Of a stretch of 64,000 nucleotides of DNA, positions 24,707-26,247 are shown in pieces (positions within the stretch are counted from its first letter, which is position 1; each line of letters starts with the position of its first letter). The notes beneath the pieces are model-generated. The model made no database searches, had not been told where the DNA came from, and worked only from the letters and a program-made list of their open reading frames with translations. The stretch is taken from the NCBI GenBank assembly GCA_947385775.1, contig CANDMI010000011.1:504-64503 (forward strand), in the 5' to 3' direction. Origin of the DNA: an uncultured Eubacterium sp. (GTDB lineage Bacteria; Bacillota; Clostridia; Lachnospirales; Lachnospiraceae). Both the position numbers and the translations under genes were made by a program.

Positions 24707-24737
24707 TACCTGCGGCCAAATTTGCCGCAGGTATTTT
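24707..24737 (+). terminator. Intrinsic terminator after citrate synthase
   Basis: TACCTGCGGC / GCCGCAGGTA stem plus TTTT. Confidence 0.8.
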
Positions 24738-24850
24738 CTCGCGCAACAAATTTAGAGTGTTTTTTATGAATTATCCCAATTTTTTCATTGCATATTTTGG
24801 ATTTATCTAGTAAAATTTATTCATAAGGTAGAAAAAAGGAGTGTATCATT

Positions 24851-25225
24851 ATGTTAATATCAGAAGCCAAAATTTTAATCGGGGATGACTCTATTCTAGC
24901 ACGGAAACAATTAAAGGATATCTTAACCGGACTTGGCGGCGTCCATTATACGGAAGCGGCAAATGGTCAGGAAGTGATTGATAAATATAAGCAGGAAAAA
25001 GCGGATATCATTTTCCTTGATATTGTAATGCCAGTCAAAGATGGCGTGACTGCCACAAAAGAGATCATCGAGTCCGACCCATCCGCTACGATTATCATTG
25101 TTTCTTCCATTGGCACGAAGGAACAGTTGAAAAACGCTATTGAAGCAGGTGCAAAGGATTTTATCCAAAAACCTTTCTCTGCGATCAACATCCAGCGAGT
25201 GCTTGAATCACGTTTTGAAAAATAA
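24851..25225 (+). CDS. Single-domain response regulator (CheY-like)
   Basis: ILIGDDS, FLDIVMP phospho-acceptor Asp, SS, AKDFIQKPF; no output domain. Confidence 0.95.
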   Translation: MLISEAKILIGDDSILARKQLKDILTGLGGVHYTEAANGQEVIDKYKQEKADIIFLDIVMPVKDGVTATKEIIESDPSATIIIVSSIGTKEQLKNAIEAGAKDFIQKPFSAINIQRVLESRFEK

Positions 25226-25237
25226 AGGAGATAGTCT

Positions 25238-26125
25238 ATGTATGCACAATTTTTTGGAAATTTTTTACTAAGCCGCAATGTTGTCACACCGCAACAGCTC
25301 ATCGCCGCCATCAATAAGGAATCCAGCAGCCGAATCAAGCTTGGCACGCTTGCTATGTATCATAATTTAATGACTGCAAATGAGATTGACGATATTGTGA
25401 TCGCGCAAACACATGAGGATAAGCATTTTGGCGAAATCGCGATCGAACGCCAGTATTTAACAGAAGAACAGGTAAACAGCCTTTTATCTGAGCAAAGCCC
25501 GGACTATTTGCTGCTGGGGCAGATCTTAATCGAAGAAAATATTTTGACCAATGCGCAGCTAGAAAGCCTGATCGTAGATTATGAATCGGAGCATGAGATT
25601 TATGACTTAGATCTCCAGGTTGACCAAAAAGAACAGGTTGGACAGCTTATCCGCCATTATTTCAAACTGGAAAATGTCGAAAACAGCGATCTATATCAGG
25701 CATATCTGACGCTTTTATTTAACAATCTGATACGCTTTATCGGCTCAGACTTTACGCCTATGACTCCGATTGCCTGTGAAGAATTTCCGACGCAGTTTTG
25801 TATTGTGCAGCATATTACCGGAAAGTACAACATCCTTTCCGCAATCGACATGGACCGCTCAATGGCAATCGAGTTTGCCTCCCGCTACGCGATGGACACG
25901 TTTGACGCATTTGACGAATATGTAGAAGCTTCTTTGGAGGACTTCTTAAACCTGCACAACGGGTTATTTACCGTAAATGTATCCAATAACCGCGCCGTAG
26001 AGCTGCAACTTACGCCGCCGGAAGCGCATGAAAAGGATCTGCTGGAATTTCCAAAAGGTTCCAACTCCTATATGTTCCCTATCCTTTATCCGTTTGGGAC
26101 GATTAATTTTATTTTATCATTTTAA
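25238..26125 (+). CDS. Protein with four MshEN-like repeats and a C-terminal CheX/CheC-like domain
   Basis: 24+5 residue periodicity over residues 5-115; SLEDFLNLHNG...TPP resembles E-x2-N-x22-P. Confidence 0.75.
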   Translation: MYAQFFGNFLLSRNVVTPQQLIAAINKESSSRIKLGTLAMYHNLMTANEIDDIVIAQTHEDKHFGEIAIERQYLTEEQVNSLLSEQSPDYLLLGQILIEENILTNAQLESLIVDYESEHEIYDLDLQVDQKEQVGQLIRHYFKLENVENSDLYQAYLTLLFNNLIRFIGSDFTPMTPIACEEFPTQFCIVQHITGKYNILSAIDMDRSMAIEFASRYAMDTFDAFDEYVEASLEDFLNLHNGLFTVNVSNNRAVELQLTPPEAHEKDLLEFPKGSNSYMFPILYPFGTINFILSF

Positions 26126-26158: not shown

Positions 26159-26213
26159 ATCGAGTAGGGGAACGCCCTTCTCCCCTACTCGCGCGCCGGG
26201 CGCCCGTGCGCAT
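26159..26213 (-). mobile_element. 55-nt miniature group IIC intron-like remnant (copy B)
   Basis: Minus strand ATGCGCACGGGCGCCCGGCGCGCGAGTAGGGGAGAAGGGCGTTCCCCTACTCGAT|T, directly after the thrC terminator. Confidence 0.65.
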
Positions 26214-26247
26214 AAAAAGCGGCGCAGTTTCCTGCGCCGCTTTTTAT
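26212..26247. terminator. Bidirectional terminator between thrC and the CheX-like gene
   Basis: ATAAAAAGCGGCGCAG-TTTC-CTGCGCCGCTTTTTAT perfect inverted repeat. Confidence 0.88.

Follow-up and report, generated by a model that had tools for sequence, protein, structure and literature searches.

Wang et al. 2016 (Nat Commun 7:12481; PMC5013675) name CheX in their main text among the fusion partners of MshEN_N, a domain that binds cyclic di-GMP (c-di-GMP), and their survey (Supplementary Table 4 and Fig. 3c) lists the architecture "(MshEN_N)2 - CheX" from Deltaproteobacteria and Firmicutes, with Geobacter lovleyi Glov_2742 (ACD96455) as the exemplar. We analyzed a locus of this kind in a stretch of 64,000 nucleotides from an uncultured, motile gut Eubacterium sp. 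of the Lachnospiraceae (GenBank assembly GCA_947385775.1, contig CANDMI010000011.1, positions 504 to 64,503 of the forward strand); "the window" below means this whole stretch. The element under study is a two-gene operon in which a gene for a stand-alone CheY-like receiver is followed, after a gap of 12 nt, by a gene for a fusion protein of four MshEN_N-type repeat units and a C-terminal CheX domain. Since the architecture was catalogued in 2016, the window gene adds a member to a known kind, and the architecture itself is not new. Based on the analysis below, the two-gene pair probably feeds c-di-GMP, the "swim or settle" messenger, into chemotaxis signaling.

Several described proteins share parts of this design. 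Glov_2742 has, like the window protein, four 24-residue motifs followed by CheX, and from the stretches KFFGQFLV, LKLGEMAV, MKLGDLLV and YIGEALV the four can be recognized as those of the window protein. In the survey these motifs count as two MshEN_N domains in series, 1-60 and 61-119; residue couplings in the family of the window protein favor, in contrast, the pairs 2+3 and 1+4. The survey entry for this architecture mentions neither an obligate CheY partner nor a variant fused to a receiver (REC) domain, and the public annotation of the family proteins reads "chemotaxis protein CheX". Vibrio cholerae MshE (MshEN, PDB 5HTL) and Thermus PilF GSPII (8PDK, 6F8L) have in common with the window protein the 24+5+24 logic, the helix-turn-helix units and a four-helix bundle, predicted in the case of the window protein. 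Unlike them, the window protein lacks the MshEN_C subdomain and the type II secretion/type IV pilus (T2SS/T4P) ATPase, carries four units instead of two, and has Arg1 and Gly10 replaced. The CheX phosphatases of Thermotoga (1XKO/1SQU) and Borrelia (3HZH, with CheY3) are like the window domain in their fold, in a single active-site helix with acid-x2-Asn and in a Pro 21-22 residues further on. The window clade differs from them in having Asp for Glu, the fusion to a sensor array, a private CheY outside any che operon and a weak sequence similarity. A precedent for c-di-GMP input to chemotaxis is Aeromonas CheA, in which an internal MshEN_N binds c-di-GMP with a dissociation constant (Kd) of 2.6 µM. 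Aeromonas CheA, V. cholerae PlzC-CheX, Caulobacter Cle and Pseudomonas MapZ-CheR1 share the concept that c-di-GMP signaling is tied to motor bias or to the level of CheY-P; the inhibition of CheX by PlzC acts in trans and does not depend on c-di-GMP. Unlike these four inputs, the window protein joins the putative sensor and the phosphatase domain in one polypeptide.

The sequence-only reading, an earlier note made from the letters of the window and its open reading frames (ORFs), had described both ORFs and an N-terminal part of the fusion protein built from four 24-residue units with exact 5-residue linkers. The translation bears this out, the linkers being SSSRI, THEDK and SPDYL. The repetition was quantified by scoring residues 1-120 against themselves with BLOSUM62. 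The scores at offsets 29, 58 and 87 were 61, 62 and 20, the top three of all offsets from 10 to 99. A score of 61 at the 29-residue period was reached by 0/2000 shuffles, in which the maximum was 31, so that the period is far beyond chance.

Then, to which domain family do the repeats belong? The 53-position NCBIfam model NF053729 ("c-di-GMP_motif, MshE-related") matches the fusion protein in three overlapping registers with 59.1 bits against a cut-off of 38, and across the whole host genome it matches the fusion gene only. Single 53-residue stretches score 28.5-29 bits, each below the cut-off. A profile built from 34 N-termini of the family and compared with solved structures found Thermus PilF (6f8l, 5.4e-15) and V. 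cholerae MshE (5htl, 1.6e-6), and it places residues 30-87, that is units 2+3, on residues 5-62 of MshE, which form the complete ligand-binding module. An MshEN-like helical fold had been proposed from the letters, and structure prediction returned it. AlphaFold2 modeled the full-length fusion protein with a predicted local distance difference test (pLDDT) score of 95.1 and a predicted template modeling (pTM) score of 0.88, and residues 1-120 alone with a pLDDT of 93; the models contain eight helices, corresponding to four helix-turn-helix units. A Foldseek search with the full-length model listed CheX, CheC and FliM matches only, and the N-terminal 120 residues were modeled and searched separately. 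Among PDB entries, the N-terminal model matches MshE with bound c-di-GMP best (5htl_B; root-mean-square deviation 0.8 Å over 53 columns, probability 0.99), and the c-di-GMP-bound PilF GSPII-B domains superpose at 1.4 Å over 54-55 columns. The curated hidden Markov model, the profile match and the predicted fold thus support an N-terminal array of the MshEN_N type.

Wang et al. 2016 (PMC5013675) reported that binding depends on the Gly at position 3 and on hydrophobic residues at positions 2, 17 and 21 of each motif, that replacing the Arg at position 1 or the Gln at position 24 has an effect of less than fivefold, and that the position-10 Gly has a structural role only, in the turn between the helices. 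The same work found that binding has been lost in many MshEN domains; in the non-binding XpsE, position 3 has changed from G to V/L, and positions 17 and 21 are polar. In the translated fusion protein 4/4 units retain Gly at position 3 and hydrophobic residues at positions 2, 17 and 21. In the order 2/3/17/21 the residues are F6/G7/L21/I25 in unit 1, L35/G36/I50/V54 in unit 2, F64/G65/V79/L83 in unit 3 and L93/G94/L108/I112 in unit 4, and none of the four units carries an XpsE-type disabling change. The query departs from the canonical Arg1/Gly10/Gln24, with F/K/H/L at position 1, N/N/Q/N at position 10 and E/Q/Q/Y at position 24; the Asn and Gln residues at position 10 are turn-compatible replacements.

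To see how general these features are, residues were counted in an alignment of 124 representatives of the wider family, clustered at 50% identity and divergent down to 26% identity, and in 121 sequences of the query's own clade. Units 2 and 3 are near-canonical throughout the family. Unit 2 has K/R at position 1 in 111/124 representatives, G36 in 116/124, Gly at position 10 in 100/124 and Q57 in 116/124, and the corresponding counts for unit 3 are 96/124 (R/K), 113/124 (G65), 107/124 (Gly10) and 115/124 (Q86). Units 1 and 4 are degenerate family-wide. Position 1 is F/Y/L in unit 1 and L/V/S in unit 4, position 24 is variable in unit 1 and Y/F in 124/124 in unit 4, and the position-3 Gly of unit 4 occurs in 58/124 of the wider family and in 121/121 of the query's clade. 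Two further positions were seen in the same alignment. At position 21 of unit 2 (residue 54) the family has His in 74/124 members and the query has Val, and Asp61 in the linker between units 2 and 3 is kept in 110/124 and has the strongest couplings to G36, G65 and Q86. Residues 54 and 61 may be extra ligand contacts specific to the fusion family.

The C-terminal half was likewise read as CheX-like from the letters, and this assignment stands. Foldseek aligned the predicted domain with the CheX crystal structures 3hm4, 1squ, 1xko, 6vpw and 3hzh over 146-155 columns (E 6e-10 to 1e-7; template modeling (TM) score normalized to the target, 0.73-0.79), whereas CheC, FliY and FliM structures matched clearly less well (TM 0.45-0.49 for CheC and FliY, and 0.31-0.55 where FliM and CheC are taken together). 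The motif D-x2-N-x22-P was confirmed as D235, N238 and P261, and P260 lies at x21. Compared with the CheX motif (D/S-x3-)E-x2-N-x21/22-P, the query keeps N238 and P260/P261, has Asp235 in the place of Glu and has Ala at the -4 position, which is Asp in 45/124 of the wider family. A phmmer alignment lays EDFLN over the TEVGN of the active-site helix of Borrelia CheX (3hzh_B, from the CheX-CheY3 complex); the match is weak (E 0.23). Position 235 is acidic in 122/124 of the wider family, as Glu in 92 and as Asp in 30. N238 is kept in 120/124, N241 in 122/124 and G242 in 120/124. Asp235 is fixed (121/121) in the query's own clade only. With the residue roles in the CheX class taken as summarized in PMC12887009, these comparisons point to a domain of CheX fold in a family that carries the standard CheX catalytic dyad, and to a conservative variant, Asp235, of the predicted receiver-contacting residue in the query clade.

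The replacement of the motif Arg and Gly and of the catalytic Glu was noted by the sequence-only reading, correctly, and was taken there as a sign that the ligand or the activity may differ from the canonical case. That extension has been weakened by the Glu at position 235 in 92/124 of the family, by the Gly at the turns of its members, by the less than fivefold effect of Arg and Gln changes and by the structural role of Gly10 (PMC5013675). Judged from the alignments, the Asp-for-Glu and Asn/Gln-for-Gly changes are clade-specific and conservative, with E-x2-N and Gly retained in the wider family.

The partnership with the receiver, which had also been proposed from the letters, holds across the family with the receiver upstream, downstream or fused. 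The phosphorylation residues of the receiver are intact, with the acidic pair D12/D13, the phospho-acceptor D57, S85 and K107, to which F104 and the K107-P108 step can be added, and the 124-aa protein has no output domain. Among its paralogues in the genome, the nearest is the fla-operon CheY, whose gene adjoins that of FliY (contig C49, 44.7% identity). The receiver scores below every NCBIfam CheY equivalog cut-off and is therefore regarded as a CheY paralogue, not as canonical CheY. In 80/80 related loci from species genomes (49-86% identity) the receiver gene lies directly upstream on the same strand, and two distant relatives at 28% identity keep the receiver-fusion pair amid wholly different neighbors. 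A sister clade in Lachnospiraceae (24-32% identity) has the receiver immediately downstream in 29/38 loci, the opposite gene order to the window, and overall the receiver is adjacent in 35/38 of these divergent loci. Several sister-clade genomes encode in-frame (MshEN x4)-CheX-REC fusions of 432-450 aa. In one of them (L118:7554-8861, minus strand) Pfam Response_reg covers residues 319-429 of the three-part protein, and others are found at L126, L127, L128, L130, L132 and L133. Two gene orders and a fusion, always outside che operons, are strong evidence that the receiver is the functional partner of the fusion protein. The receiver is thus a near-obligate partner, and its conservation or fusion argues for a CheY-type substrate of the CheX domain.

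The host and the distribution of the family fit a c-di-GMP and chemotaxis setting. The host genome has 11 GGDEF matches, two PilZ proteins, two CheA-CheW clusters, a CheV-like gene, CheC/FliY homologues and flagellar switch genes. In a sample of one genome per genus from 151 Lachnospiraceae genera, 52 were carriers and 99 were non-carriers. CheW is found in 51/52 carriers and 31/99 non-carriers (Fisher p = 2.7e-17) and GGDEF in 52/52 and 69/99 (p = 6.6e-7), with phylogeny ignored in both tests. The sole carrier without a CheW match at E <= 1e-10 is a 99% complete genome (G093, contig C6:7512-8384). There a GGDEF gene lies 0.5 kb from the family member, which has no receiver above the adjacency threshold but a 119-aa ORF just downstream. 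GGDEF genes also occur near divergent carriers, with one inside 0.5-3.3 kb in each of four loci. They lie at about 1.4 kb on the divergent strand (L110 and L111) and at about 0.5 kb (L135), and the fusion-receiver pair of L102 has two of them at 3.2-4.5 kb, one with HD-GYP; near the window's own copy there is none. Elsewhere in the host genome an operon on the minus strand (contig C39:20209-23038) encodes a GGDEF protein (583 aa), a CheY-like receiver (122 aa) that is 40% identical to the window receiver, and a CheC-like protein (231 aa). It is apparently another link from c-di-GMP to a CheY-P phosphatase. The family is very large, with 1794 cluster representatives at 50% identity in one search, relatives in at least 551 species genomes by a pattern scan, and 2595 clusters at 90% identity in the sister clade. 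It occurs in flagellated gut butyrate producers labeled Roseburia, Eubacterium and Agathobacter, and the motility and flagellins of these gut bacteria matter for colonization and host immunity.

What the in silico work shows is the operon structure, both folds, the receiver as an obligate partner, and conservation at the catalytic and ligand-contact positions. Together these results lead us to favor, at a probability of about 65%, the reading that the fusion protein is a dedicated CheX-type phosphatase whose substrate is its own CheY paralogue and whose activity c-di-GMP modulates. The receiver would take up its phosphate at D57, the likeliest donor being one of the two CheA kinases of the genome, and the CheX domain would remove that phosphate, with Asn238 positioning the attacking water and Asp235 contacting the active site of the receiver. 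The four helix-turn-helix units would bind c-di-GMP, most clearly in units 2+3, and binding would alter the phosphatase activity, so that the cellular c-di-GMP level would set the lifetime of CheY~P and through it the chemotactic or motility behavior. For the phosphorylated receiver itself, contact with the motor and a role as phosphate sink are both conceivable.

Several points weigh against this reading. The query departs from the consensus at positions 1, 10 and 24, and its catalytic Glu is Asp. The match to Pfam CheX (PF13690) is barely above threshold, at 27.7 bits against a cut-off of 27. The Foldseek E-value of the short MshE match is 1.1 and not significant by itself; the poor E-values for MshE and PilF arise because the matched stretch is short, and the structural match backs the sequence result but does not stand alone. 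The associations with CheW and GGDEF come from tests blind to phylogeny. Glov_2742 stands without a reference in the survey and is not in its table of isothermal titration calorimetry (Wang et al. 2016, PMC5013675), and full-text literature searches found no experimental work on (MshEN_N)2-CheX after 2016. Finally, four elements of the reading are inferred, namely that c-di-GMP binds, which way it would shift the activity, which kinase acts and what the output is, and of these the kinase and the direction count on the negative side.

How far do the data fit other explanations? The repeats may be a degenerate MshEN_N relic that binds no nucleotide, as in Xanthomonas XpsE, and serves dimerization or partner docking, which would leave a constitutive dedicated phosphatase. 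Such a relic would fit the lack of the motif Arg (position 1) and turn Gly (position 10) in every query unit, the family-wide degeneracy of units 1 and 4 (with the position-3 Gly of unit 4 in 58/124 only), and the loss of binding in many MshEN domains (Wang et al. 2016, PMC5013675). It is at odds with the binding-critical Gly and hydrophobic residues kept in all four units, where XpsE-type changes are absent, with the strong conservation (113-116/124) and co-variation of G36, Q57, G65 and Q86, and with the presence of GGDEF in every one of the 52 carrier genomes. We consider it unlikely, but an explanation to be kept in mind. That the module senses another nucleotide, such as 3'3'-cGAMP, c-di-AMP or pGpG, seems to us very improbable. 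The guanine specificity of MshEN comes from backbone amides at positions 3 and 4, a geometry that is conserved in the query, c-di-AMP is sterically excluded from MshEN, and the occurrence of the family tracks GGDEF; what can be said for another ligand is the weak cGAMP binding by VcMshEN and the non-canonical positions 1 and 24 of units 1 and 4.

A different question is whether the CheX-like domain is an enzyme at all. It could mainly dock the phosphorylated receiver, and the protein would then be an effector on the output side, combining the phosphorylation of the receiver with c-di-GMP and acting on another target, for example the flagellar switch. The CheC/CheX fold does serve non-catalytic binding in FliM and FliY, the pair is without any other output domain, and the Asp in the place of the catalytic Glu in the query clade would be compatible with a docking role. 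However, N238, N241, G242 and the acidic residue are near-invariant down to 26% identity, as catalysis predicts, and the best structural matches are to the enzymatic CheX class (TM 0.73-0.79) and not to FliM or CheC. A domain that mainly docks is rated as quite improbable.

Should the favored reading hold and c-di-GMP gate a CheY-P phosphatase directly, no more direct wiring of the sessile/motile messenger into chemotaxis phosphotransfer would be known; sensor and enzyme would share one chain and have a private substrate. Consisting of two small soluble proteins, the family is also a simple biochemical system for how MshEN_N modules pass ligand binding to an attached enzyme.

The arrangement of the four units was addressed by mean-field direct-coupling analysis of 454 non-redundant N-termini, from which gapped rows had been removed and whose effective number, 256, is modest. 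Inter-unit couplings with z > 3 numbered 11 between units 2 and 3 and 9 between units 1 and 4, followed by 3 for 2-4, 2 for 3-4, 2 for 1-3 and 1 for 1-2, and a run with 336 sequences gave the same ranking of unit pairs. The 1-4 couplings bridge 70-105 residues and are consistent with MshEN-type packing. They include position 17 of unit 1 with position 2 of unit 4 (residues 21-93, z 4.4), position 21 with position 6 (25-97, z 4.2), position 12 with position 11 (16-102, z 4.0) and position 2 with position 20 (6-111, z 3.8). These couplings are suggestive, though not conclusive, of a nested pairing in which units 2+3 form the canonical bundle and units 1+4 a second, degenerate bundle, rather than of pairs 1+2 and 3+4. 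Because positions 1-3 and 24 lie at the ligand end of a bundle and all linkers have 5 residues, the two ligand-facing ends would oppose each other. We advance, as a speculative and on balance doubtful picture, that units 2+3 are inserted between the halves of the 1+4 bundle and that the opposed ligand ends make up a composite site. In this picture c-di-GMP could be clamped there, perhaps as an intercalated dimer, and closure of the site would switch CheX; for CheA of flagellated gut Lachnospiraceae, the receiver-phosphatase pair would then be a phosphate sink tuned by c-di-GMP.

The coordinates of all features are collected in the table.

Table. Features of the receiver-fusion operon and its surroundings, in window positions.
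Feature	Position	Strand	Evidence or remark
Intrinsic terminator, upstream citrate synthase gene	24707..24733	+	10-pair stem (7 G-C), then T-run
Candidate sigma-A-type promoter, TTGCAT-17 nt-TAAAAT	24788..24816	+	AT-rich stretch, sequence reading alone
Shine-Dalgarno AAGGAG, receiver gene	24836..24841	+	9 nt 5' of ATG 24851
Stand-alone CheY-like receiver, 124 aa	24851..25225	+	Pfam Response_reg 2.9e-24
Shine-Dalgarno AAGGAG, fusion gene	25225..25230	+	7 nt 5' of ATG 25238; overlaps receiver stop codon
(MshEN_N-type x4)-CheX fusion protein, 295 aa	25238..26125	+	NCBIfam NF053729 and Pfam CheX (bits in text)
Unit 1, residues 5-28, FFGNFLLSRNVVTPQQLIAAINKE	25250..25321	+	Degenerate: aromatic at position 1, Glu at position 24
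Unit 2, residues 34-57, KLGTLAMYHNLMTANEIDDIVIAQ	25337..25408	+	Near-canonical: K-L-G start, Q end
Unit 3, residues 63-86, HFGEIAIERQYLTEEQVNSLLSEQ	25424..25495	+	Near-canonical; R/K at position 1 family-wide
Unit 4, residues 92-115, LLGQILIEENILTNAQLESLIVDY	25511..25582	+	Degenerate: Leu at position 1, Tyr at position 24
Predicted CheX-fold phosphatase domain, about residues 145-295	25670..26122	+	Foldseek to CheX structures
Putative catalytic helix motif D235-F-L-N238, counterpart of CheX E-x2-N	25940..25951	+	phmmer to 3hzh_B
D235 codon GAC	25940-25942
N238 codon AAC	25949-25951
Second hairpin, in the spacer 26159-26247 between fusion gene and thrC	26164-26188		Sequence reading
Bidirectional terminator hairpin, common to fusion gene and convergent thrC	26214..26245	.	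Sequence reading
ORF beyond thrC, 281 aa	27967-28812	+	No significant Pfam match

The terminator upstream, a strong one, sets the citrate synthase gene apart from the two-gene operon. Together with the AAGGAG before both genes, the short gap and the terminator downstream, it bears out the earlier proposal of a co-transcribed two-gene module, as far as sequence signals can tell. The overlap of the second Shine-Dalgarno sequence with the receiver stop codon indicates translational coupling. The TTGCAT-17-TAAAAT element is a plausible promoter of the operon, inferred from its sequence, and a match of a promoter scanner at 24820-24849 was discarded because it ends 2 nt 5' of the receiver ATG, too close to serve.

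As the sequence-only reading had also stated, no kinase or chemotaxis genes lie nearby. Neither CheW nor CheA was found on the fusion contig (C11), and no histidine kinase is encoded there, with 0/62 HATPase_c matches of the genome falling on it. An anti-phage defense role was rejected, as PADLOC gave no match for the fusion protein and only weak generic receiver matches for the receiver. The flanking genes encode phosphoenolpyruvate (PEP) carboxykinase, citrate synthase and threonine synthase (thrC). A functional tie to these genes or to the 281-aa ORF beyond thrC was rejected, since the synteny is restricted to close Lachnospiraceae relatives and distant carriers have unrelated neighbors. 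In distant carriers the module does not include the 281-aa ORF, which is a conserved neighbor in 66/80 related loci.

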